DNA from: Alphaproteobacteria bacterium
GTDB lineage: Bacteria; Pseudomonadota; Alphaproteobacteria; UBA7887
Length of the DNA stretch: 64,000 bases
Direction of reading: 5' to 3'
NCBI GenBank assembly: GCA_030739735.1
Contig: JASLYQ010000001.1
Coordinates: 159,633-223,632, forward strand
Positions 47,947 through 60,169 of the stretch are shown one piece after another. Under the pieces are notes generated by a model. That model saw nothing but the letters and a program-made list of their open reading frames with translations. It made no database searches and had not been told where the DNA came from. Each line of letters begins with the position of its first letter. Position 1 is the stretch's first letter. Position numbers and translations under genes: made by a program.

Positions 47947-49719
47947 TCAGTTGAAGTGTAGCGCTGCCGGGGGTAGGTGGTCGGCGTCAAGGCAGCACCA
48001 ATCGGCGACTTCAATGCCAAGGTCGGCGAACAGTGGACGCAGAATGGCAACGCGGCGAAAGGGGGCATTGCCGAGGGCGTCGCTGTCACCGGCGCGGCTG
48101 CGCGCGGCAAGCCCCTCTATCGCGGCCTTGAGCGTGGCGAAGTCGTCGGCCATGGCGACAGTCGCGGCGCCCTCGCCAGTGATGTTCCAGGACAGACTGA
48201 CGGAAAGCCAGGCATCGCCCGCGGCGGAGCGCGCGCCAAGGCCACTCACAGTGTCGCGCAGGGCAAAGGTCGCCCGCCAGTTTTCGCCGTCGCGGCGCAA
48301 ATTTCTGTCCTCGACGGCCAGGCCGGCAGGCGCCGCGGAATCGGAGCGCAGCCGCGCAACGCTGCCACTGCCATCGCCGCGCAAACGCCCGCGCAGCACC
48401 AGGCTACCGTCAGCAAAAGGCTCGCAAGTGAAGCCGAACTCGTCGCCGTCGGCGCGCACCGCGCACGGTGTCACCACCTCGCGGACCACTGTGGCGCCGT
48501 CGCGCAGGCGCGCATCGAGGCGCTGGATATCCACCAGGGCCATGAAGTTACCCAGCCCGGCAATGGTCTGGCTCACCCAGAAGGGCTCGACAGACGGCAT
48601 GCCGGCAAAGGACGCCGGCACTCCCCAAACGCTCTCTGGCCGCCGCTCATAGAGCGGCTCGTAGGTATCGTCGAATTGCAGCAGAGCGGGCGTGACCAGC
48701 GCCCTGAGCTCAGCGAGATCCATCTCGCCGTCCACGCGGCCAGTGCCGTAGCCGGCTTCTGCAAATGGGTCGTAGTCCGCGAGATCTGCGCTAGCGAGGG
48801 CGGCCCCTGCAGGGAAGCGTGCCTGCCAGCCCGCCACGACAGAGGCGGCGAAACGGTCGCGCGCGCCGTCGCCCGCCTCGGCAAGCTGGTAACCGCTGGT
48901 TAGACGGTAACGCAGCGCCGCCACCAGACCGTCGCGCCGGCACCCCACCGCATCCTCCGAGGCCTCGCACGCCTGTTGCCAAGCCGCCTGATAGGCGACG
49001 AAATAATTGGCGCGATTTGTCGACTCGTCAAAGGATTCGGGAATGTCGAATGGCACCGTGGCATCGATACCGTAGAAACGCTCGCTGGTATGGCGCAGCA
49101 ACGCCGCCACCTTAATGTTCGTATTGCTCTCGGCCCAGGGGCGGTCGGCATAGATCAGCGCATGGTTATGGTGGCAGGCGAGGCAGAGCCCGCGGTCAAC
49201 ATAGCCCACCGTGGGGTTACCGCCTTCACGGTAATCGCTGATGACCTGATAATCGAAGCGCCCGGCGGCCTCATTGTAGCTGATCGCCTCGACCGAGTTG
49301 GTGCGCGGCTGATAGCCGAGATAGAGCCTGTCCTTCATCATCAGACCCGATTCCCCCGCGGTGGGCGCCGGCTCTGTATCGACGGCACCGACCGCCCGCG
49401 GGTAGCGGAAGAAGTCCGGCTCAGCCTCGTGGCGGTGCAGAGAGCGGCCGATCGGGTGCAGTACCCGCTTTATGGGCTCCCGGAATCCGGGTCCAAGCCG
49501 CGCGGCGATGCGCTCGATTAACGCCTCAAAGGGATAGGGTGCGACGATCTGCCAATCGCCATCGACCTCCTCGGCCAGTACGAAGTCGAGCAGCGAGCGC
49601 CCGACCGGCGGCAGGTCCGGTCCGCGATTAGCTTCCGAGGTTAGCGCTTCGGGCTCGGCCAGTACCGGCGCCACAAAGGTTAGTACCAAGAGTATTGGGA
49701 AAAGTTGTCGCATCACCAC
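47947..49719 (-). CDS. exported hypothetical protein with a single CXXCH haem-c-type motif
   Basis: 590 aa. N-terminal signal peptide MVMRQLFPILLVLTFVAPVLAEP. CLACHH at about residue 186. No other family recognised. Confidence 0.6.
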   Translation of the reverse strand: MVMRQLFPILLVLTFVAPVLAEPEALTSEANRGPDLPPVGRSLLDFVLAEEVDGDWQIVAPYPFEALIERIAARLGPGFREPIKRVLHPIGRSLHRHEAEPDFFRYPRAVGAVDTEPAPTAGESGLMMKDRLYLGYQPRTNSVEAISYNEAAGRFDYQVISDYREGGNPTVGYVDRGLCLACHHNHALIYADRPWAESNTNIKVAALLRHTSERFYGIDATVPFDIPESFDESTNRANYFVAYQAAWQQACEASEDAVGCRRDGLVAALRYRLTSGYQLAEAGDGARDRFAASVVAGWQARFPAGAALASADLADYDPFAEAGYGTGRVDGEMDLAELRALVTPALLQFDDTYEPLYERRPESVWGVPASFAGMPSVEPFWVSQTIAGLGNFMALVDIQRLDARLRDGATVVREVVTPCAVRADGDEFGFTCEPFADGSLVLRGRLRGDGSGSVARLRSDSAAPAGLAVEDRNLRRDGENWRATFALRDTVSGLGARSAAGDAWLSVSLSWNITGEGAATVAMADDFATLKAAIEGLAARSRAGDSDALGNAPFRRVAILRPLFADLGIEVADWCCLDADHLPPAALHFN

Positions 49720-50243: not shown

Positions 50244-52691
50244 TCAACTTGTCACGCGCTCATGGGCCGGGTCATAAAACGGCCGAGCGCTCGCCTTAGC
50301 GGCGAATTGGCTACCGCCAATCTCTATCTCGTAGGAGGCCTCTTCGATCCAGGCTTTATCGGCGCCATCGGGCATGTCGAGATAGCCCATGCCCACGGAC
50401 CGACCCAGCGTGTAGCCGAAGGTGCCGGACGTCATCATGCCGGCCAGATCGCCATTACGAAAGATCGGCTCGTCATGCAGCAAGATCGGCTCGGGGTCGT
50501 CCATCAGAAAATGCGCGAGGCGCCGGCTCAGACCCTTCGCCTTTTGTTGCTCCAAGGCTGCGCGACCGATGAAGTCGGTAGTCTTCTTGAAAGAAACGGC
50601 GAAGCCGAGTCCCGCCTCGAGCGGCGTGTCGGCTGGCGTAATGTCGTGGCCCCAATGGCGATAGCCCTTTTCGCTGCGTAGCGAATCAAGAGCATGATAG
50701 CCGGCCAGGCGAAGGCCGAGATCCGCCCCATCGGCCATCAGCAGATCGAAAACCGGGCCGCTGAATTCCGTCGGCAGATAGAGCTCCCAACCCAGCTCGC
50801 CGACATAGGTGATGCGCATTGCGCGTGCCTTAGCATAGCCGATTTCGATCTCCTGGCTTGTACCAAACCGAAAAGCCTCGCTCGAAAAATCGGTATTTGA
50901 CAGACGCGACAGGAGCTGCCGTGAATTCGGGCCCATCACCGACAGCACGCCATAGGCCGAGGTCACGTCCTCGATGGTAACGAACGCCTCGTCATCGAGA
51001 TTGCGGCGGATCCAGTTGATGTCGCGCGCTTGCGAGGCAGCAGCCGTAACCACCAGGTACTTATTCTCGGCCAGACGCGTCACGGTCAAGTCGGCCTCGA
51101 TACCACCACCGGAATTGAGAAATTGCGTGTAGACCACTTTGCCGACCGCCACCGCCATATCGGCAGCGCAGATTCGTTGCAGTTGGACTTCGGCATCGCG
51201 CCCCTGAACCACGGCCTTGCCGAACGACGAGAGGTCGAACATACCGACGGCCTCGCGCACCGCCTTGTGCTCCTCGCCGACAGGATCGAACCAATTCTGC
51301 CTACCATAGGCGTATTCGTATGCAGTGCTAACACCGTTGGGTGCGTACCAGTTTGCGCGCTCCCAGCCAGCGACCTCCCCGAAGCTCGCATTATGTTTTG
51401 CCAAGCGACTGTGCAGTGGCGTCTCGCGCACAGGGCGCGCAGTCTCCATCTGCAGATGCGGCCAATGCATAGCGTAGAGGAGGCCAAGGCTTTCCCGCGT
51501 GCGGTCGTGCAAGTAGCGACAGTTGGCCTGAAAGCGCTGAAAGCGAACAATGTCGATCTCTGACAGATCCATGGTTGGTTGCCCCTCGACAATCCATTCC
51601 GCGAGGGCGCGCCCGACGCCAGCCCCACTGAGGATACCTTGGGAGTTGAATCCAGCGGCAACGAAGAAATTCTTCAACTCTGGCGCTTTGCCGAGAATGA
51701 AACGGTTGTCTGGCGTAAAACTTTCCGGGCCGTTCATAAAATGCCTGATACCTGCGTTCTCGAGTAGGGGTATCATCTCCATGGCGCGGCCCAGTGGCGG
51801 TCCGAACTGGTCCCAATCCTCCTGCAGTTCGCCGAACTCGAACTTGGCCGGAAGCGCGTCGAGCGACAACGGCTTAGCATTCGGCTCAAAGGCACCAACC
51901 AACAGCTTGCCGGCATCCTCTTTCACATACACGGTGCCGTCGGTATCACGCAGGACAGGCAAGTCAGAAGGTATCGCCGGATCGGTCTCGGTCGTCACAT
52001 ACATGTGCTCGGCGGCGTAAAGCGGCACGTTGACACCGGCCAGGCAACCGATATTGCGGGCCCAAACGCCGGCACAGTTAGCAACAACCTCACAGACTAT
52101 GTTCCCGTGGTCGGTTACGACCGCCGTGACCGCCCCGTCGACAATCTCGAAGCCTGTGACGCTAACCCCCTCGACAATTCGAATGCCACCTCGGCGCGCT
52201 CCCTTGGCGAGCGCCATGGTCGTATCGATGGCATTGGTCTGGCCGTCGCCCGGAATGAAACCGCCGCCGAGCACGCGGCCCTCGTCGAGCAGGGGGTAAA
52301 GCTCTTTGGCCTCGGCCGGGCCGACCATCCGCGTCTCGACGCCAAAGACCTTGCCCAGCGAGATCATGCGCGCAACCTCGGTTAGACGCTCTGGCGTGCG
52401 CGCGACCTGTAACGAGCCATTGGCCTTGAACCCCGTGGCCTGTCCCGTTTCCGCCTGCAACGCCCCATAAAGCAAGGGGCCGTAGCGGCAAAGCTCGGTC
52501 ATCGTATGGGTAGCGCGGAGCTGCGTGACCAGCCCCGCCGCGTGCCAGGTGGTGCCGCAGGTCAGTTTCCCACGCTCCAGCAACGTAACGTCGCTCCAGC
52601 CCAGCTTGGCGAGATGGTAGGCGATCGAGCAACCGGCGATGCCACCACCGATGATGACGACCCGGGACTGGCTGGGAAAGGCTTCGGCCAC
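50244..52691 (-). CDS. dimethylglycine/sarcosine dehydrogenase-family protein (FAD DAO domain + GcvT-like folate-binding domain)
   Basis: 815 aa. VVIIGGGIAGCSIAYHL FAD motif, covalent-FAD His region (GTTWHAAGL), C-terminal aminomethyltransferase fold. Confidence 0.85.
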   Translation of the reverse strand: MAEAFPSQSRVVIIGGGIAGCSIAYHLAKLGWSDVTLLERGKLTCGTTWHAAGLVTQLRATHTMTELCRYGPLLYGALQAETGQATGFKANGSLQVARTPERLTEVARMISLGKVFGVETRMVGPAEAKELYPLLDEGRVLGGGFIPGDGQTNAIDTTMALAKGARRGGIRIVEGVSVTGFEIVDGAVTAVVTDHGNIVCEVVANCAGVWARNIGCLAGVNVPLYAAEHMYVTTETDPAIPSDLPVLRDTDGTVYVKEDAGKLLVGAFEPNAKPLSLDALPAKFEFGELQEDWDQFGPPLGRAMEMIPLLENAGIRHFMNGPESFTPDNRFILGKAPELKNFFVAAGFNSQGILSGAGVGRALAEWIVEGQPTMDLSEIDIVRFQRFQANCRYLHDRTRESLGLLYAMHWPHLQMETARPVRETPLHSRLAKHNASFGEVAGWERANWYAPNGVSTAYEYAYGRQNWFDPVGEEHKAVREAVGMFDLSSFGKAVVQGRDAEVQLQRICAADMAVAVGKVVYTQFLNSGGGIEADLTVTRLAENKYLVVTAAASQARDINWIRRNLDDEAFVTIEDVTSAYGVLSVMGPNSRQLLSRLSNTDFSSEAFRFGTSQEIEIGYAKARAMRITYVGELGWELYLPTEFSGPVFDLLMADGADLGLRLAGYHALDSLRSEKGYRHWGHDITPADTPLEAGLGFAVSFKKTTDFIGRAALEQQKAKGLSRRLAHFLMDDPEPILLHDEPIFRNGDLAGMMTSGTFGYTLGRSVGMGYLDMPDGADKAWIEEASYEIEIGGSQFAAKASARPFYDPAHERVTS

Positions 52692-52780: not shown

Positions 52781-53893
52781 CTATGCGCCGTTGCGTGCTT
52801 CCTTCAGGGCTGCGGGTAGAGCTTCTTCAAGCAGGTCGAGGTCGCCGGGCAGGCCGGCGCTGATACGGATACACCGATTGAGAGGAGCGACGCCGGGCAT
52901 GCGAACGAATACATCGCGCCTGGCAAGTGCTTCGAGAACGCGTATCGCTAGGTTGCCGTCACCCGCGCAATCGACGGCCACGAAATTGGTCGCAGTCGGC
53001 AGGCTATCGAGCCCATTCGCGGCAGCGATGGAGGCAATGCGCTCGCACGCAGCAGAGACCTTGATAGTCACCTCGGCCAGATGAGCCGCATCGCCGAGCG
53101 ATGCCAGCGCCGCTACCTGGGCCATTCGGTTAACGCCAAAATGATTGCGCACCTTATCAAAAGCACCAACCAAACCAGCTTCGCCAAGCGCATAGCCGAC
53201 ACGCGCACCGGCCAGGCCGTGCGCCTTTGAAAAAGTGCGAAAGCGCAGCACCTTGCGGCAAGAGATATCGAGTGGCGGAACCGTGCCGGCCGGTGCGAAG
53301 TCCGAGTAGGCTTCGTCGAGCACCAGCACACAACCATCGGGTACAAGCGCGATCATGTCCTCGATCTTCGCCGCATCGGACCAACTGCCCATGGGATTAT
53401 CCGGGTTAGCGAGATAGATCAGGCGTGCCTTCTCGCGTACCGCCAGGTCGAGCAACGCCTCCGGATCCTCACGGTCCTCACGATAGTGAACCGTGGCTAG
53501 CCTGCCGCCAAAGCCAACAACATGAAAATTAAAGGTGGGATAGGCGCCGAGTGAGGTTGCCACGGTCACGCCAGGCTCGACGAACAGCCGCACCATATAG
53601 CCGAACAGCGCATCGATGCCCTCGCCCACGACGACATTCTCGGGCGCCACGCTGTGATGCGCGGCGAGCGCCACCTTCAGATCGTGGTTCTCGGGATCAC
53701 CATATTGCCACAGCGCGGTCGCTTCGGCCTGCATTGCCGCGACAGCCTTCGGCGAACAGCCGAAAACACTTTCATTAGCACCGATGCGGGCACAAAACGG
53801 CTTGCCACGCCTGCGCTCCAGCGCCTCTGGGCCGACAAAGGGCACGCTTTGCGGCAGGCTCCTGGCAAGCGGCGTGAAATCGTAATCTGTCAC
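52781..53893 (-). CDS. PLP-dependent aminotransferase, class I/II (HisC-like)
   Basis: 370 aa. LDEAYSDFA, PLP-Lys region RTFSKAHGLAGARVGY. Confidence 0.8.
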   Translation of the reverse strand: MTDYDFTPLARSLPQSVPFVGPEALERRRGKPFCARIGANESVFGCSPKAVAAMQAEATALWQYGDPENHDLKVALAAHHSVAPENVVVGEGIDALFGYMVRLFVEPGVTVATSLGAYPTFNFHVVGFGGRLATVHYREDREDPEALLDLAVREKARLIYLANPDNPMGSWSDAAKIEDMIALVPDGCVLVLDEAYSDFAPAGTVPPLDISCRKVLRFRTFSKAHGLAGARVGYALGEAGLVGAFDKVRNHFGVNRMAQVAALASLGDAAHLAEVTIKVSAACERIASIAAANGLDSLPTATNFVAVDCAGDGNLAIRVLEALARRDVFVRMPGVAPLNRCIRISAGLPGDLDLLEEALPAALKEARNGA

Positions 53894-53907
53894 GCCAGCC
53901 TCCGTTT

Positions 53908-54450
53908 TCAGTTAGGCTCTGGCCAGTATAGCAGGAAGCCGTCACGGTTCGGCATCTTCACACCAGGCAGGCTATCGGCATCCATGACCTGGCCGTCCTT
54001 GATGATGCCGTTCAAGCTCAACAGGTATGCCGTGACCGCATAGACATCGTCATTGCTGAGCGACATCGGCCGATCATAGGGCATGGCACGGCGCACGTAG
54101 TCAAAAATAGTGGTGGCATAGGGCCAGTAGCTGGCTATGGTTTTCACCGGCTTGTCGCCGGCTAGAGAATCGATGCCACCGGCAAGTGCATCAGCAAATT
54201 TCTCGCCGCCCCTGGCGCCCCCGCCATGGCAGCGCCTGCAGTGCTGATGGTAGACGTGAGCGCCGCGTTCGGCATCACCCCTACCGGGCGGCAAGGTGGC
54301 ACCGTCGGGCGCGATGCTGATATCCCATTTAGCGACCTCTTCCGCCGATACCGGCTCGCCCAGCTCTGGACCGGGCTCAGCGAGAACGGGACTGGCAACA
54401 AGCAGGACCACGGCCAAGGTCGAAAGCGTGCAACGATCAAATATAGACAT
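53908..54450 (-). CDS. monohaem cytochrome c, sulfite dehydrogenase partner subunit (SorB/SoxD-like)
   Basis: Start at MSIFDRCTLSTLAVVLLVASPVLA (signal peptide), overlapping the sorA-like stop by 14 nt. Single CRRCH haem site. Confidence 0.7.
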   Translation of the reverse strand: MSIFDRCTLSTLAVVLLVASPVLAEPGPELGEPVSAEEVAKWDISIAPDGATLPPGRGDAERGAHVYHQHCRRCHGGGARGGEKFADALAGGIDSLAGDKPVKTIASYWPYATTIFDYVRRAMPYDRPMSLSNDDVYAVTAYLLSLNGIIKDGQVMDADSLPGVKMPNRDGFLLYWPEPN

Positions 54451-55735
54451 TGCTGACCTCCCCGTTGCTTGCAATGCCCCAGGTTTGGATGGCGTTGCAG
54501 TGGTAGAGATGGCCTGCCGCATACTGCTCGGACCACACTTCGCGTCGTAGCTGGGTGTTACCTTTCTCGTCGGTCGCGCGGCTTTGCACGACAGCTGGCG
54601 CGCCGTCCCAACTCCAGGGCAGGCGGAAACGCGTCAGCGCCATCGGCTGCACCGGCCCGTCCAGCGCCGCCTCCGCCCAGCTCTTGCCGCCGTCGGCCGA
54701 GACCTCGACGCGGGCGATTCGGCCGTGGCCTGACCAAGCGAGGCCCGAGATCTGATAGAGCCCCGCGCCGCGCATCGTCAGACCCGTTGCCGGGCGTGTG
54801 ATGGTTGATTTCACATCCATGCGGAAAGTGAACTGGCGCGCCATGCCGTCGGGCATCAGGTCGGAATATTTCGAGGTCTCGTCCTTTGTGTGAGTTGGTC
54901 CCTCGGTGACCTTGATGCGGCGCAGCCACTTGACCGACATATTACCTTCGTAGCCCGGCAACACGAGGCGCATGGGGTAGCCGTTCTCGGGGCGTAGGCG
55001 CTCGCCGTTCTGATACAAAGCCACGATGGCGTCGTCGAGTGCCTTTTCCATGGGAATGCTACGGCTCATGGCGGCGGAATCAGCCCCCTCGGCAAGAATC
55101 CACTTGCCGCGCGGATCCAATCCAGCTTCATCGAGTAGGATCGAGAGCGGGATACCCGTCCACTCGGCACCGGAGATGAGACCGTGGATCATACCTACCG
55201 GCACCTGCATGGGCTCGGAGAACAGGTTGCTGTTGAAGAAACTATTGCCAGCGCACTCGATAAATAGAAGTCGGCTAGCCATCGGATAGCGCAGCAGCGC
55301 CTCTATGTCGAACTTAAGCGGCTGCACCACCAGACCATGGATCAAAAACTCATGCCTCTCCGAATCGATGATGGGTCGGCCGTTGTGGCTGCGCTCGAAA
55401 TGCAGACCGTTGGGTGTGATGGTGCCTTCAAGGTTCTGCAGTGGCGTCATGCCGACACCAGCGCCGGGCGCCAGATCGCCATAGGGCTGAAGCACGGTGC
55501 GAGCTGTCTCCCGTTCGGCGCGAGCAGGATCACCGTAGGGCCGAAACGTGATGCCCGGCACGGTCATCCAGCTCGGCGCTTCATCGCCGATGGATTCCGC
55601 GGCTACAGCCGCACCGGGCAGGGCCGCCGCAGCCACCGCACTGCCAGCGAGAAAGGCGCGCCGGTGCAGCAGACCACCGCTCGCGACTGGCTCGCCGAGC
55701 GCCTCGGCGGCGGGCACAGTGTTCTTCTTTGACAT
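54437..55735 (-). CDS. Tat-exported molybdopterin oxidoreductase of the sulfite-oxidase family (SorA/SoxC-like sulfite dehydrogenase catalytic subunit)
   Basis: 432 aa. Twin-arginine signal HRRAFLAGSAVAAAALPGAAVA. Moco domain (ECAGNS…). C-terminal Mo-co dimerisation domain. Strong RBS GAAGGAGGAG. Confidence 0.8.
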   Translation of the reverse strand: MSKKNTVPAAEALGEPVASGGLLHRRAFLAGSAVAAAALPGAAVAAESIGDEAPSWMTVPGITFRPYGDPARAERETARTVLQPYGDLAPGAGVGMTPLQNLEGTITPNGLHFERSHNGRPIIDSERHEFLIHGLVVQPLKFDIEALLRYPMASRLLFIECAGNSFFNSNLFSEPMQVPVGMIHGLISGAEWTGIPLSILLDEAGLDPRGKWILAEGADSAAMSRSIPMEKALDDAIVALYQNGERLRPENGYPMRLVLPGYEGNMSVKWLRRIKVTEGPTHTKDETSKYSDLMPDGMARQFTFRMDVKSTITRPATGLTMRGAGLYQISGLAWSGHGRIARVEVSADGGKSWAEAALDGPVQPMALTRFRLPWSWDGAPAVVQSRATDEKGNTQLRREVWSEQYAAGHLYHCNAIQTWGIASNGEVSNVYI

Positions 55736-55749
55736 CGGTTCTCCTCCTT

Positions 55750-57837
55750 CTATTTTGCTGCCACCGGCACGGCTTCCTCGCGCGGCCCAATACCGGAACT
55801 ACCCGACAGGCGCTCGCGGCGCTCCCTCCTGGCCACCAAGGGCGGACAGACCTGATCGTCCTGATAGGCCACCTGGCAGGCCAGACAGTGATAACACTCA
55901 TTGAAATTTATGCTGCCATCGTTGCCGATCGCCTGCACCGGGCAAAGCGGCTGACAAGTGTTGCAGCTACTGCCGCATTCGGGCCGACGCTTTAACCAGA
56001 GCAGCATGCGCCAGCGCCCGAGGATGGCAAGGCTGCCGCCCAGCGGACAGAGATAGCGGCAAAAGGCGCGCTCAACGAAGAGCCCTACACCGAGTATAGC
56101 GAGCGTAAACAGCACATAGGGCCAGGCGCGCACGAAGCCGAACAGGATCGCCGTGTCGAAGGGCTCTATCTCGACAGCGCGTATGACCGGGGTCCGATCG
56201 ATGAAGACCAGCGCGACTAGTGCTATCGCGACAACATATTTGAGCGCCCACAGCCGCTCGTTGAGCGCAGCCGGCAGTTGCCGCTGGCGCAGCCCAAGCC
56301 ACCGCGCAGCTTTGTTGAGCAACTCCTGCAAAGCGCCAAAGGGGCAAAGCCAGCCGCAGAATATGCCGCGTCCGAGCAGCAGCAGGGTAAGCCCCGCGAA
56401 GCCTAGCACGATCAGTGTCAGGGGATCGAGCAGCATTGCCTCCAACCCACCGCCTTCGAAGGGCGCCCGGGCAATCGTGAAGAGATGGCTGATCGACAGT
56501 TGCGCGCCTGCATACCAGCCGATCCAGCCCAGCGAAAAGACAAGAAAGACAGCGCGTAGCCAGCGCATACATTGGGCGTGTCGGACGAGCCGGTTTTGGG
56601 CCAATAGCACAGCCGAAAGGGTTGCCAGCGCCAGCAGCAGCACCGCGATCTTGGCTTCCTGGTCCTTCCACACCGAGAGCCAAAGGGCCGGCACCTCAGC
56701 GGCACGATTATCGACAGCGGCAACGAGCCGCGGAATAGGCTCGACCACCAGCTCAGCCGGCGGCGCGTAGTCAAGCCCGAACCGGGCTTCTCCGCCGAAG
56801 GCGATCTCCAGCAACCACGGCCGGCTACCATCGAAGCCGCTCGTCGCCGGAATTCGCAACAGAACTAGCTGCTCCATGGCCGGCGCACCACTCACGGCGA
56901 CACCGTTCAGGGCAACCGACTCAAACTCGTTGAGTGATAGCGTCAGCCCGCCTTGACGCAGGCTAAGCGCGCTTGACACCGGCGCTTCGGCAAGGGTCGC
57001 AACGCCCCGCCGCAGACTGGCCCGTCCGGCACTTGCGACGAGCAGAAGTGAATCACCTTCCGCGAGCCCGGCCGCGGCATGAGCTTCGGCGCCAAGCAGA
57101 TTGCGCCCGATCAGTGCCGGAGTCGCGAGCGCCGTAACGAGGTCAGCAAAAAGCATGTCGGCTGGACCGCTGCTAAGCTTTGCGGCATGGGCGGCGACAT
57201 CACCATTGCTGAGCGTCAGCCGGCGGACCGCACCAATGGCGCGCAGCCCTGCCCAATCGAGGGGGCGGAAGCTCACGAGATCGAGGCGGCGGGCCTCGCG
57301 GGCGCCGGGACCGAGCAGGTCACGCGAGACCGCGACCATGCGCCCGGCCCGGTAGATACCGTCGAGCAGCGCCAACACGCTGATATCAGCACGCCCGCCA
57401 TAGTCTTCGGGTGCGGCAGGCCGTGGCGCGAGCACATCAAGGCCGACCAGCCCGGTAAGCGCCGCTTCCAGCGCCGCGCGCCCACCGAGATTACGCAGTA
57501 GTGGCTCGTCCTCAGCAATCAGCACTGCGCCGGTGACGCGGGCGTGCATATCGAGGCCGAGCAGAATGTCAAAACGACTGCCGCCGTAGCCACGCGGCTT
57601 GGCCAAGTCGCCGACCGAAAAGACATAGCCCACAATGTCACCGTCGCGAAGAACCTCGGCAGCAGGCGGGCGCCCATCCGTCGGTTGAGCGCGATCTGCG
57701 CCGGGAAAGGCTTGCGCCAGGCGGTCCGGCGTCAAGCGGTCGGCCAGGGGGTCGGGTTTTGCGGCCGGGGATTCCGTTGCCATCCCAAGCCCGCAGAAAA
57801 GCCCCAAGATGACGAGCCGTCCGATCGATTTTCTCAC
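55750..57837 (-). CDS. NosR/NirI-family membrane polyferredoxin, paralog 1 (FMN-attachment motif degenerate)
   Basis: 695 aa, GTG start with signal-like N-terminus. Periplasmic N-domain, 5-6 TM helices with CGWLCPFGALQE and FCRYLCPLGG, C-terminal 2x[4Fe-4S] ferredoxin motifs (CGSSCNTCQPLCP, CYHCLACQ). The SGATxSS flavin site is replaced by ADISVLA. Confidence 0.8.
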   Translation of the reverse strand: MRKSIGRLVILGLFCGLGMATESPAAKPDPLADRLTPDRLAQAFPGADRAQPTDGRPPAAEVLRDGDIVGYVFSVGDLAKPRGYGGSRFDILLGLDMHARVTGAVLIAEDEPLLRNLGGRAALEAALTGLVGLDVLAPRPAAPEDYGGRADISVLALLDGIYRAGRMVAVSRDLLGPGAREARRLDLVSFRPLDWAGLRAIGAVRRLTLSNGDVAAHAAKLSSGPADMLFADLVTALATPALIGRNLLGAEAHAAAGLAEGDSLLLVASAGRASLRRGVATLAEAPVSSALSLRQGGLTLSLNEFESVALNGVAVSGAPAMEQLVLLRIPATSGFDGSRPWLLEIAFGGEARFGLDYAPPAELVVEPIPRLVAAVDNRAAEVPALWLSVWKDQEAKIAVLLLALATLSAVLLAQNRLVRHAQCMRWLRAVFLVFSLGWIGWYAGAQLSISHLFTIARAPFEGGGLEAMLLDPLTLIVLGFAGLTLLLLGRGIFCGWLCPFGALQELLNKAARWLGLRQRQLPAALNERLWALKYVVAIALVALVFIDRTPVIRAVEIEPFDTAILFGFVRAWPYVLFTLAILGVGLFVERAFCRYLCPLGGSLAILGRWRMLLWLKRRPECGSSCNTCQPLCPVQAIGNDGSINFNECYHCLACQVAYQDDQVCPPLVARRERRERLSGSSGIGPREEAVPVAAK

Positions 57838-57922
57838 AAGGATCCCCTACGTACCTGTCGCCCGCAATGGCAGTGGCCGTTGCATAGCAAAGATGGGTGG
57901 GCACGCAAAGCGCCGTTTTCCC

Positions 57923-59959
57923 TTATGTCGCCGCCGCCCGCGCAGCGCGCTTGCGCTGCTGGATCAGCGGCGGACAGCGCCCCTCATCGAAATACTCGAC
58001 CTGGCACTCCAGGCATTGGAAACATTCGTTCATATCGATGCTGCCATCGCCGCGGATCGCATCGACTGGACAAATCTGGCGGCAAACCGCGCAAGGGCTG
58101 CCGCATTGCGGGCGTTGCCTGAGCCAGCGCATCACGTGCCAACGCCCGAGAAGACTCAGCGCGCCGCCGAGCGGGCAGAGAAAGCGGCAGAAGAAGCGCT
58201 CAATGAAGAGACCGAGAACAAGGAGGATCCCAGCATAAAGCACGTAGGGCCAGTGACGCGCGAAGCCGACCACGATGGCGGTCTTGAAGGGTTCCACCTC
58301 CGCGGCCACCTGGGCGGCGTCGAGCGACCATATGGCGAGTCCGAAAATTACCAATGTCACCAGATATTTGGCAGTCACCAGACGTTCACCCAAGCTCTCC
58401 GGAATCTTGACACGCGGCAGGCGCAAACGGCGCGCGACGGCGCCAGCGAACTCCTGCAAGGCGCCGAAGGGGCAAAGCCAGCCACAGAAGACGCCACGAC
58501 CCCATAGCAGCAGCGTGACCAGCACATAGAGCGACAGCAGAAAGATTAACGGGTCGAGCAGTACCAGCGCCGGGTCGAGGCCGGAGACCATGATCCGCGC
58601 ATAGGTGACGATGTTGAGGATCGTCAGCTGTGCATCGACGATCCAGCCAAGCCATACCAGAACCACCGCCAGAAAGCCGAGGCGCAGCATGCGGTAAAGA
58701 CGGCGACCACGGACCAGGCGATCCTGCCACAGCAACATCAGCGTAAGCGTGGTGAGCAAACCTACAAGAGCCACGATATCGCCGGCCCGGGCCACCCAGA
58801 CCCTTTGCCAGTCATTGAGCAGGCTTCCGCGCAGCAGACCGAACAAGACATAGGTGGGCTCTTTGTAGCCAGCCTCCTCCAATGCAAAGTCGCTGCCGGT
58901 CACGAAAAGCGCGGGCAGCGTGTAGGGTAGACTGTGGGTTTCGTCCCCGATATCGAACTCGAACGCCCAGGGCTTGAACACGTCAAAGCCGTCGCGGGCG
59001 CCGAGGCGGAACATAACTCGCTCGCTGAAGCACGGCGCGCCGTCACCAATGATGGAGGGCTTACCGAGCTTGTTATCGCGGCTCAGCGGCAGGGTTTTGC
59101 CGTCCTGGACAATGCGCACATTGGGATAGGGTTCACCACCGCGCGGCCTTTTGCGGAACAGCGCCGGATTGCCGGTACCGGCGAGGACGAGCAGGTGCTC
59201 GTCAGTGCCGAGCTTCGAGACATGGAAGGTATGCCAGCTACCGCCAAAAAAATTGCGGCCGATGCCGGGCGGTGTGGTAATCGCGGCATAGACCTCCAGG
59301 GTCTCGCCAGCCTCGCTCGGCACGGCGAGTGTCGTCACCGCGCCCAGCGCAAGCAGGGTTTGCCAGTCGCGTGGCTCGTAGCTCCTCATATCAACGCTGA
59401 CGCCCGTTTCCAGCCCGTCGATCAAACCGTATTCCGTAGCAATCTTGCGCGCTGAAGACAGCACCGCCGAGCGCATCAGCTTGCTGCTCACCGTGGCACC
59501 CGAGATGGCATCGGTGGCCTCGCGTACATTGCGCAGCGATTGATCCACGGGAAAGCCGGAGAGCTGAAGCAAAAATCCATCCAGACGTGAGAGCGGGATG
59601 GCGTTGTGGCTGATGATCGGCTCGTGGTGCTCGATCACATGCACGCCGCGCAGGCGGCCATCCAGATCAATGCCGACCAGTAGATCGAAAGCGAGGCCGG
59701 TGAAACCACCGATGGGATCGATGTCGTAGGTCGAGAGCACGTAACCCGCCAGGGCATCGTCGATGAGCACTTCCGCCACCGCGGGCCGGCCGCTGATCTC
59801 GCCGACCTCGTCGGCCTCGGGAAAGGCCTGGTCGAGGGCGCGGACCGACAGGCGACGCTCCAGCGGATCCTCCTTGTCAATTGCCTGAGCATCGCCAGTG
59901 AGCACACAAAGCAACGCGGCAACAACAAGAAACAGGCGGTACGTCGGAAAGGCAACCAT
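57923..59959 (-). CDS. NosR/NirI-family membrane FMN-binding polyferredoxin, paralog 2 (intact FMN_bind motif)
   Basis: Start at MVAFPTYRLFLVVAALLCVLTGDAQA (the track ORF runs to 60016). FMN_bind signature DAISGATVSS. TM domain with CGWLCPFGALQE/FCRFLCPLGG. C-terminal CGSPCAVCRQICP and CFQCLECQ ferredoxin motifs. Confidence 0.8.
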   Translation of the reverse strand: MVAFPTYRLFLVVAALLCVLTGDAQAIDKEDPLERRLSVRALDQAFPEADEVGEISGRPAVAEVLIDDALAGYVLSTYDIDPIGGFTGLAFDLLVGIDLDGRLRGVHVIEHHEPIISHNAIPLSRLDGFLLQLSGFPVDQSLRNVREATDAISGATVSSKLMRSAVLSSARKIATEYGLIDGLETGVSVDMRSYEPRDWQTLLALGAVTTLAVPSEAGETLEVYAAITTPPGIGRNFFGGSWHTFHVSKLGTDEHLLVLAGTGNPALFRKRPRGGEPYPNVRIVQDGKTLPLSRDNKLGKPSIIGDGAPCFSERVMFRLGARDGFDVFKPWAFEFDIGDETHSLPYTLPALFVTGSDFALEEAGYKEPTYVLFGLLRGSLLNDWQRVWVARAGDIVALVGLLTTLTLMLLWQDRLVRGRRLYRMLRLGFLAVVLVWLGWIVDAQLTILNIVTYARIMVSGLDPALVLLDPLIFLLSLYVLVTLLLWGRGVFCGWLCPFGALQEFAGAVARRLRLPRVKIPESLGERLVTAKYLVTLVIFGLAIWSLDAAQVAAEVEPFKTAIVVGFARHWPYVLYAGILLVLGLFIERFFCRFLCPLGGALSLLGRWHVMRWLRQRPQCGSPCAVCRQICPVDAIRGDGSIDMNECFQCLECQVEYFDEGRCPPLIQQRKRAARAAAT

Positions 59960-60169
59960 GGGGCCCGGGACGGATACGGCTTTGCTGTGCCCTTGTCGAG
60001 AGTTAAGCCGGTGCAAGGATCGGCTGAGCGAGAATCCACAGGCTCAGGACCGAGTATGCGACCATCAGCAGCAGCAGTGGCAATTGCGCGAGATTGCGCG
60101 CGCCCCGAGGTGGGAAGAACGCCGGGTTGTCACGCCTAGAACCTAGGACCCGGCCAACCGATATCGTCG

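Follow-up and report, generated by a model that had tools for sequence, protein, structure and literature searches.

The window analysed here (the whole stretch of 64,000 nucleotides, from contig JASLYQ010000001.1 of an Alphaproteobacteria bacterium) carries a minus-strand cassette of four genes. Two tandem genes for NosR-like membrane proteins, nosR-like-2 and nosR-like-1, are followed by genes for a SoxC-like molybdenum enzyme and a SoxD-like monohaem cytochrome c. An aminotransferase gene and a gene for a DMGDH-like protein come next (Table 1). The order and spacings of these six open reading frames (ORFs) had been given by a model that saw only the letters, here called the sequence-only reading, and ORF listing and translation reproduced them exactly. 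The gene starts also agree with gene calls on identical metagenome contigs, where the called gene places the probable start of nosR-like-2 at the Met at 59959. Gene order and gene fusions in related genomes make it very probable that the NosR pair is electrically coupled to the SoxCD-like enzyme.

The catalytic subunit belongs to the SoxC type. It scores 534.7 bits with the model for this group (TIGR04555 sulfite_DH_soxC, cut-off 420), has the PF00174 and PF03404 domains, and matches SoxC of Paracoccus pantotrophus (2XTS chain A) with 353.8 bits over residues 62-431. Its identity to the SoxC-like gene that P. pantotrophus carries in locus L094 is about 46%. The cytochrome matches the partner subunit SoxD (2XTS chain B) with 131.8 bits over residues 30-173, and because both proteins match the two chains of 2XTS, the pair is assigned to the SoxCD type and not to the SorAB type. 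The sequence-only reading had offered both names, and only the SoxC half of that label has stood. The SorA model (NF052245) gives 130.7 bits against a cut-off of 600 and the SorT model 117.6 bits against 570, so far under the cut-offs that a SorAB identity for the molybdenum enzyme was rejected. MsrP-type scores are negligible. With its TIGR04555 score, its Mo-ligand Cys and a SoxD-homologous haem subunit, the enzyme looks like an oxidising SoxCD.

PF12801 matches both NosR-like proteins, as does PF27538 (NosR) in precomputed domain tables. Their scores with the NosR model NF046105 (467.4 bits for NosR-like-1 and 503.0 bits for NosR-like-2) are both below the cut-off of 1000, and by these models they are members of the NosR/NirI family in the broad sense, not NosR equivalogs. 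NosR-like-2 has the full set of parts: a signal peptide, a periplasmic domain predicted to bind flavin mononucleotide (FMN) (PF04205 28 bits; PF12801 57 bits), the membrane motifs CGWLCP and CRFLCP, and two cytoplasmic [4Fe-4S] cysteine motifs. Its flavinylation motif, DAISGATVSS, aligns with the SGAT of nosZ-linked NosR and nirS-linked NirI. NosR-like-1 has the membrane motifs CGWLCP and CRYLCP, and both of its [4Fe-4S] motifs are intact. The pattern CxxxCxxCxxxCP is present in both translations, a pattern search finds CxxCxxC...CP in both, and NosR of S. meliloti shows an identical pattern of CX3CP and Fe-S motifs. Across 15 NosR1-type orthologues (alignment A1) the Fe-S and CX3CP cysteines are invariant.

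The periplasmic domain of NosR-like-1 is different. It has neither a PF04205/FMN_bind match nor a flavinylation motif, and the column that holds the flavinylated Thr of canonical NosR is Asp or Glu in 5/5 NosR1-type orthologues (the window, L004, L007, L008 and L009). NosR-like-1 is therefore predicted not to be a flavoprotein. The sequence-only reading had described NosR/NirI proteins as carrying an FMN domain, a membrane domain and an Fe-S domain, which holds throughout for NosR-like-2 and for all but the FMN domain of NosR-like-1. In the AlphaFold model of NosR-like-1, which is confident for the periplasmic part only (the pLDDT of the membrane and Fe-S part is <50), the best structural matches to the periplasmic domain are RnfG subunits (7ZC6 chain G, E = 7.7e-4). 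This flavin-less domain is not decaying. Its ratio of nonsynonymous to synonymous substitution rates (dN/dS) against the L007 orthologue is 0.17, equal to the rest of the protein and approximate, as dS is near saturation, and purifying selection acts on both paralogues of the window.

Table 1. Features of the window and of the loci compared with it that adjoin a pyrroloquinoline quinone (PQQ) dehydrogenase system; aa, amino acids.
Feature	Sequence	Position	Strand	Detail
Intergenic region upstream of nosR-like-2	window	59960..60169	-	210 nt; likely cassette promoter region
nosR-like-2	window	57923..59959	-	678 aa; mechanical ORF 57923-60016, TTG start at 60016
NosR-like-2 S153-G-A-T156 codons	window	59492..59503	-	predicted ApbE flavinylation site
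nosR-like-1	window	55750..57837	-	695 aa; 85-nt gap after nosR-like-2
NosR-like-1 Asp151 codon	window	57385..57387	-	aligns with flavinylated Thr of canonical NosR
soxC-like	window	54437..55735	-	432 aa; 14-nt gap after nosR-like-1
SoxC-like twin-arginine signal HRRAFL	window	55649-55663	-	twin-arginine translocation (Tat) motif
SoxC-like Mo-ligand Cys161 in FIECAGNS	window	55253-55255	-	aligns with FCECAANG of 2XTS
SoxD-like monohaem cytochrome c	window	53908..54450	-	180 aa; mechanical ORF to 54522; 14-nt overlap with soxC-like
Cytochrome haem motif CRRCH	window	54226-54240	-	only CxxCH in the protein; Sec signal present
HisC-like class I/II aminotransferase	window	52781..53893	-	370 aa; 14-nt gap after cytochrome gene
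DMGDH-like	window	50244..52691	-	815 aa; 89-nt gap after aminotransferase
PQQ-adjoining region	L077	5427-14316
PQQ-adjoining region	L085	5430-14274
PQQ-adjoining region	L095	698-11125
PQQ-adjoining region	L058	4694-7732

From their spacing, the nosR-like and soxCD-like genes appear to be co-transcribed. The aminotransferase gene is probably co-transcribed with them, although it is a lineage-specific addition. A promoter and terminator scan of 49.5-61.5 kb gave counts at or below shuffled expectation and is uninformative on operon boundaries. There is no sign of denitrification-type regulation, since the search for FNR/NNR boxes found none recognisable in the intergenic region upstream of nosR-like-2 and returned a single match, far from the cassette and at chance level.

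Gene tables from identical contigs cover ~55 of the 64 kb of the window (roughly 1-20.6, 23.7-44.9 and 49.8-64 kb). In this part of the window, and in the 10 kb past its end, they list genes of ordinary heterotroph metabolism, and nosZ, nirS, nirK, sox and apbE are all absent from them. The sequence-only reading had seen no nosZ, nirS or nirK around the cassette, and this is borne out where the tables reach. It had also pointed out that a nosZ or nirS gene just outside the window would turn the NosR-like proteins into ordinary nos/nir accessory proteins; the 10 kb beyond the window end hold neither gene, so that concern falls away over this distance. Beyond the window end, ~12.8 kb upstream of nosR-like-2, lies an NnrS-family gene (a haem-copper membrane protein of the nitric oxide response; L098 1165-2355), which is not adjacent to the cassette and has no nir or nor genes alongside.

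The neighbourhood survey proposed with the sequence-only reading, of NosR homologues for SoxC partners, was made on the 80 genome loci most similar to NosR-like-1, a set enriched in relatives and not a census or random sample. A SoxC-like gene and a cytochrome gene accompany NosR in 12 of the 80, with nirS linked in 34, nosZ in 18 and none of these in the remaining 16. The order NosR2-NosR1-SoxC-SoxD is kept in four loci while NosR1 identity falls from 73% to 49%. The closest is in a 'Rhodospirillaceae' metagenome-assembled genome (MAG; L007), with NosR1 73% and SoxC 90% identical to the window. It is followed by a 4.8-Mb JGI contig (L004, NosR1 57%) and two MarineAlpha9 bins (L008 and L009, NosR1 ~50%). 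The closest genomes with the cassette are all MAGs of uncultured marine Alphaproteobacteria.

More distant loci have a single NosR. Genes in the order NosR-ApbE-SoxC-cytochrome are found in a Beijerinckiaceae genome (L058) and in Bauldia (L027). In L043 and L080 the order is SoxC-cytochrome-(small ORF)-NosR-ApbE, and L045 is alike except that ApbE was not detected. In L055 a divergent SoxC-cytochrome pair stands beside NosR-ApbE. An adjacent apbE gene is thus present in 5/6 single-NosR loci, L045 being the exception. MAGs with the single-NosR type include ones of Bauldia, Beijerinckiaceae and Rhizobium. The small ORF between the cytochrome gene and nosR (L043 7301-7882, L045 7111-7656, L080 1032-1685) encodes ~180-220 amino acids with no Pfam match. 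These clusters have the most divergent SoxC-like genes, and a second ORF without a match, of ~175-190 amino acids, comes after NosR/ApbE.

In a neighbour-joining tree of 96 NosR-family sequences, computed without support values, the SoxC-linked proteins cluster outside the nirS-linked and nosZ-linked clades. A SoxC tree, likewise without support values, is roughly congruent with it. Homologues with 43% or less identity to NosR-like-1 are ordinary NirI or NosR with nirS or nosZ linkage. These results bear on the idea that the NosR-like genes are nos/nir accessory genes with a distant target, or that their adjacency to soxCD is fortuitous. Their assignment to the NosR/NirI family is real, and some members of the same superclade appear to be orphans with no redox partner nearby. 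SoxC-free NosR genes of this kind (L019, L038, L048, L076 and L083) have Nramp, LigT, amylase, ABC ATPase, amidohydrolase and RTX protein genes as neighbours, which are unrelated, and they are treated as orphans here. An accessory role or a chance association nevertheless seems highly improbable. The clades are separate, both NosR-like proteins score far under the NosR equivalog cut-off, nosZ, nirS and nirK are absent from the DNA covered by the gene tables, and linkage to SoxC is found in 12 genome loci, with in-frame fusions in the genome loci L062, L077 and L085 and the metagenome loci L095-L097.

Tandem NosR-like pairs can also be found without a SoxC-like gene in the DNA examined (L061 7884-12040, L070 4022-8160, L074 1306-5372 and L060 562-5097). 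The SGAT motif is present in both copies of L061 and L070 and in neither copy of L060, which has RATTS/RATVS. L070 and L007 come from one MAG, so this organism holds two different NosR pairs. Plasmids gave no close relatives. In a tblastn search of plasmids with NosR-like-2 and the single NosR of L055, all matches had 36% identity or less and carried NosR/NirI-type or generic annotation, the one inspected (H28) is a nos cluster, and no cultured or plasmid-borne close relative of a SoxC-linked NosR was found. A megablast search of the region against plasmids returned only short soxC matches.

Four NosR-SoxC architectures exist. Two of them have the SoxD-like cytochrome as an in-frame fusion with a NapH/NosR membrane module. 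In L062, L077 and L085 the gene after soxC-like is a single ORF of ~1160-1180 amino acids. From the N-terminus its product has a signal peptide, then a SoxD-like haem domain (CLVCH) and a NapH-like module, and after these a hydrophobic transmembrane linker and a complete NosR. The NapH-like module has CGWLCP, CRYLCP and 2x[4Fe-4S], and the NosR part has the FMN motif GVRGATISATL. The predicted topology of the fusion, out-in-out-in, is self-consistent. The three loci are independent assemblies at two divergence levels, and L077 and L085 are complete MAG chromosomes.

A shorter fusion is found in metagenome loci of a low-GC marine lineage (L095 and L096). Here a SoxC 60% identical to that of the window is followed, with the same 14-nt overlap as in the window, by a two-haem SoxD::NapH-module protein of 686 amino acids. 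The fusion in L095 (3248-5308) has two tandem SoxD-like domains before the NapH-like module, with CISCH at residue 81 and CLSCH at residue 261, and so represents a dihaem version compared with the monohaem cytochrome of the window. Its next gene, which is complete, encodes a flavin-motif NosR of 734 amino acids. A similar SoxD::NapH fusion is present in L097, another metagenome locus. Searching with the cytochrome-plus-module part recovered further fusions (P0049 and P0050-P0058), in clusters of 1 to 136 member sequences.

Such gene fusions are a classic sign of physical interaction, and they argue for direct electron transfer between the cytochrome and the membrane module. Together with the conserved four-gene order and the distant loci that pair a single NosR with SoxC, they strongly support the suggestion in the sequence-only reading that the NosR-like proteins and the molybdenum enzyme are one unit, with electrons shuttled to or from the enzyme. 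An orthology of NosR-like-1 to the cytochrome-fused module was considered and could not be demonstrated, as the BLAST scores are equal against NosR1 and NosR2 and the neighbour-joining tree puts the fused modules elsewhere.

The fusions also bear on whether the NosR-like proteins might serve a regulatory or sensory function, needed for expression of the soxCD-like genes and not for catalytic electron flow. A function of this kind was the earliest to be ascribed to NosR and NirI. They are reportedly required for transcription of nosZ and nirS (in work attributed to Cuypers in 1992, Saunders in 1999, and Wunsch and Zumft in 2005), and the NCBIfam family is still named 'transcriptional regulator NosR'. 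Regulation alone would hardly account for the covalent joining of a SoxD-like haem domain to the membrane module, which is found in several lineages. In addition, there is no DNA-binding domain in the NosR-like proteins, all the Fe-S and CX3CP cysteines are invariant, and ApbE co-occurs in the single-NosR clusters. A purely regulatory role therefore appears quite improbable.

A PQQ alcohol dehydrogenase system lies next to the SoxC-NosR cluster in three lineages. In both L077 and L095 the order is short-chain dehydrogenase/reductase (SDR), SoxC, fusion (plus NosR), PQQ dehydrogenase (TIGR03075), small ORF and a small cytochrome c. The small ORF is MoxJ-like in L077 and has no family match in L095. 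L085 has ORFs that match the PQQ region of L077, known by size and position only. In L058, NosR comes directly after genes for a beta-propeller, a binding protein and a permease of the PQQ-alcohol-dehydrogenase system (TIGR03866, TIGR03863 and TIGR03861). The fusion lineages, high-GC and low-GC alike, have an SDR gene in front of soxC-like. There is no PQQ dehydrogenase in the window. A PQQ dehydrogenase is another periplasmic enzyme that produces electrons, and its recurrent presence is counted in favour of an inward flow.

The other neighbours in the window are less informative. The aminotransferase fits its family model (NF006014, 579 bits, cut-off 510), and the DMGDH-like protein has DAO, FAO_M and GCV_T domains. 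The aminotransferase is kept in L007 (84% identity) and absent after the cassette in L004, L008 and L009, and the DMGDH-like gene lies beside the cassette only in the species of the window. The sequence-only reading took the two as a hint that the sulfite comes from an organosulfonate or an amino acid. The place of both genes as conserved parts of the system was rejected given their absence from L004, L008, L009 and all the distant architectures; being lineage-specific, they tell little of the sulfite source. Downstream of the DMGDH-like gene, an ORF of ~590 amino acids (window 47947-49719, minus strand) has no Pfam or NCBIfam match and is called as a gene of 575-588 amino acids in three independent contigs. 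Over window positions 56001-60000 the plus strand has an AT skew of 0.21-0.23, compared with -0.14 to 0.11 elsewhere. The skewed segment coincides with the two NosR-like genes. The skew is probably due to the hydrophobic membrane segments, whose second codon positions are rich in T on the coding (minus) strand.

Pairs of SoxC and a small cytochrome with the same short gene overlap occur without NosR on plasmid pOB3b1 of Methylosinus trichosporium OB3b, on a Methylobacterium plasmid, on pPAN2 of P. pantotrophus and on a Chelativorans plasmid. The window SoxC-like protein is closest to such stand-alone pairs (54-56% identity). On the plasmid of Methylobacterium sp. NMS14P (L089, 8312-16580) a stand-alone soxC and a gene for a cytochrome c of 180 amino acids have LLM-class flavin-dependent oxidoreductases, a monooxygenase and the binding protein of an aliphatic-sulfonate ABC transporter as neighbours. 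This context fits the oxidation of sulfite released by desulfonation, and it makes free sulfite from organosulfonates a plausible substrate for the stand-alone SoxCD class.

Taken as a whole, the four genes would form one respiratory module that carries electrons from sulfite through haem c and the NosR pair to the quinone pool, a reading to which we assign a probability of about 0.55. The SoxC-like Mo centre would oxidise sulfite, its most likely substrate, and pass the electrons to the SoxD-like haem c. From there they would reach the periplasmic face of the NosR pair, where NosR-like-2 bears a predicted covalent FMN. The RnfG-like domain of NosR-like-1 probably docks the cytochrome, because it sits where the SoxD-like domains sit in the fusions; this is a positional analogy. 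The last step would run through the CX3CP membrane modules and the Fe-S clusters to the quinone pool; both this direction and this acceptor are proposals. On the strength of the architecture and the fusions, the enzyme would be a sulfite:quinone oxidoreductase of the periplasm and not a sulfite:cytochrome c oxidoreductase.

The chief alternative is the opposite direction of flow. The NosR pair could be a quinol dehydrogenase, or a link to a cytoplasmic donor, that feeds the SoxCD-like enzyme, which would then act as an S- or N-oxide reductase or receive electrons for reductive activation or repair. The characterised clients of NosR/NapH-type proteins are all reductases (PMC8238504; NapGH and MsrPQ are summarised in PMC5449189). 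Such a flow would mirror proposals for NosR with NosZ and MsrQ with MsrP, and an outward flow is also assumed for NirS, RdhA and NapGH. Outside the SoxC-linked clades, NirI and NosR are the closest relatives, and MsrP, which alone among SUOX-fold enzymes has a dedicated membrane partner, works as a reductase. The fusions are compatible with either direction. Against an outward flow, the SoxC-like protein clears the SoxC equivalog cut-off and matches canonical SoxC, its MsrP-type scores are negligible, and a SoxD-type haem subunit, a trait of the oxidising members, is kept. The neighbouring PQQ dehydrogenases are oxidative as well. We know of no reductive activation of sulfite-oxidising enzymes, and an outward flow is judged unlikely.

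Several points weigh against inward transfer to quinone. If the SoxD-like haem is high-potential, as in SorB, transfer to FMN or quinone would be uphill. No solved NosR structure was found by sequence search. The substrate of canonical SoxCD is SoxY-bound sulfur, not free sulfite. SoxC pairs without an adjacent NosR indicate that NosR is an optional add-on and not obligatory for this enzyme class, and no apbE gene lies near the window cassette. The trees lack support values, and the loci compared are the best matches to NosR-like-1. To our knowledge, the NapH/NosR-type modules studied so far (NapGH, NosR with NosZ, and PceC with RdhA) are thought to run outward, from quinol to a reductase. Published accounts of these modules can be read in the same way (PMC8238504; PMC5449189).

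Bolder forms of the sulfite:quinone reading can be given. It is conceivable, with somewhat less than an even chance, that SoxCD-NosR represents a respiratory complex of a new type, found in abundant marine Alphaproteobacteria that are uncultured, and that its electrons run inward through a NosR/NapH-type transmembrane iron-sulfur conduit. In a moderate form of this proposal, the acceptor would be the quinone pool, and more energy would be conserved than when SorAB passes electrons to cytochrome c. The boldest form would have them reach the cytoplasmic polyferredoxin domains; with sulfite/sulfate at ~-516 mV, this could supply the cytoplasm with low-potential reductant and need no reverse electron transport.

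NosR and NirI have been known for ~30 years, and their mechanism is still debated, with roles as electron donor, activator or regulator proposed. The window and its relatives offer a third, phylogenetically separate NosR branch whose partner, a Mo-haem sulfite dehydrogenase, is chemically unrelated to the other partner enzymes. The cytochrome fusions are natural constructs in which electron transfer could be measured between a spectroscopically visible haem and a NosR module. If either form of the proposal is true, this would be the first client of the NosR family with the module running inward, and the role of NosR in electron transfer would become open to a direct test, since some lineages have the haem covalently joined to the module. 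Periplasmic sulfite oxidation in marine heterotrophs may then be wired to the membrane and not only to soluble cytochrome c, which would change the energy yield expected from organosulfonate-derived sulfite.

The system is no environmental rarity. The SoxC-like protein of the window is present in identical form in 136 blocks of the assembly collection (other window proteins are in 90-146 blocks), and one fusion cluster has 136 members. The organism of the window is abundant in public assemblies; the best genome matches to the window are all MAGs, and no cultured relative was found among them. Annotation labels 'transcriptional regulator NosR' and 'sulfite dehydrogenase' separately, and the unit has therefore been missed. 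The sequence-only reading knew of no described association of NosR with the sulfite-oxidase family. Full-text searches outside the subscription literature agree, finding no link of NosR, NirI or NapH-like proteins with SoxC or sulfite dehydrogenase.

Comparison with known systems places the cassette between families. Like nosZ-linked NosR and nirS-linked NirI, the window NosR-like proteins have the general plan of a signal peptide, a periplasmic domain (FMN-binding, with SGAT, in NosR-like-2), PF27538, two CX3CP motifs among about five transmembrane helices, and 2x[4Fe-4S] on the cytoplasmic side. They are only 33-42% identical to the nirS- and nosZ-linked members, and they are paired with a SoxCD-type Mo enzyme where those members have a Cu or haem d1 reductase. 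They form a tandem pair in which one copy lacks the flavin site, and there is no adjacent ApbE/NosX. The enzyme resembles SoxCD of P. pantotrophus (2XTS) in its Mo-ligand Cys, its Tat signal and its overlapping soxC and soxD genes. Unlike that system, it lies outside a sox cluster, with no soxYZ, soxAX or soxB nearby, and its cytochrome has 180 amino acids and one CxxCH. Native SoxD of P. pantotrophus is a dihaem protein.

As in SorAB, the window pair would be a periplasmic sulfite-oxidising enzyme with Mo and haem c. The function proposed for the window module, feeding electrons from sulfite to the quinone pool, is that of SoeABC. SoeABC belongs to the dimethyl sulfoxide (DMSO) reductase family, faces the cytoplasm and is unrelated in sequence to the SoxCD type. 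MsrPQ (YedYZ) and NapGH also pair a periplasmic redox enzyme with a dedicated, quinol-linked membrane partner, and fused and split versions coexist across lineages (PMC5449189). They differ in that MsrQ is a haem b protein, MsrP is a reductase and NapG is a periplasmic ferredoxin, whereas the window module would use a c-type cytochrome and/or FMN as connector and an enzyme of the oxidising SoxC type.

The closest published concept is that of Méheust et al. (2021, eLife), in which PF12801 membrane proteins and FMN-binding domains form modular conduits 'to reductases or from oxidases' (PMC8238504). Proposed partners of NapH-like proteins in that work are NosZ, PceA, NirS (133 genomes) and the PQQ alcohol dehydrogenase ExaA (172 genomes) (PMC8238504). 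Sulfite- or Mo-enzyme partners are not mentioned in its main text, and there are no PF00174 entries in part of its supplement. A NapH-like system is defined there as a PF12801 protein that contains, or stands beside, an FMN-binding protein and is clustered with a periplasmic oxidoreductase (PMC8238504). The cassette has this composition: NosR-like-2 has both the PF12801 and the FMN-binding domains, and NosR-like-1 stands between it and SoxCD. That paper does not describe fusions with cytochrome c, a two-module design or a flavin-less paralogue, and these were not found described elsewhere. The general modularity of NapH-like systems is already published (PMC8238504), and the pairing with SoxCD fits that concept, adding what appears to be a third class of client for the NosR family.

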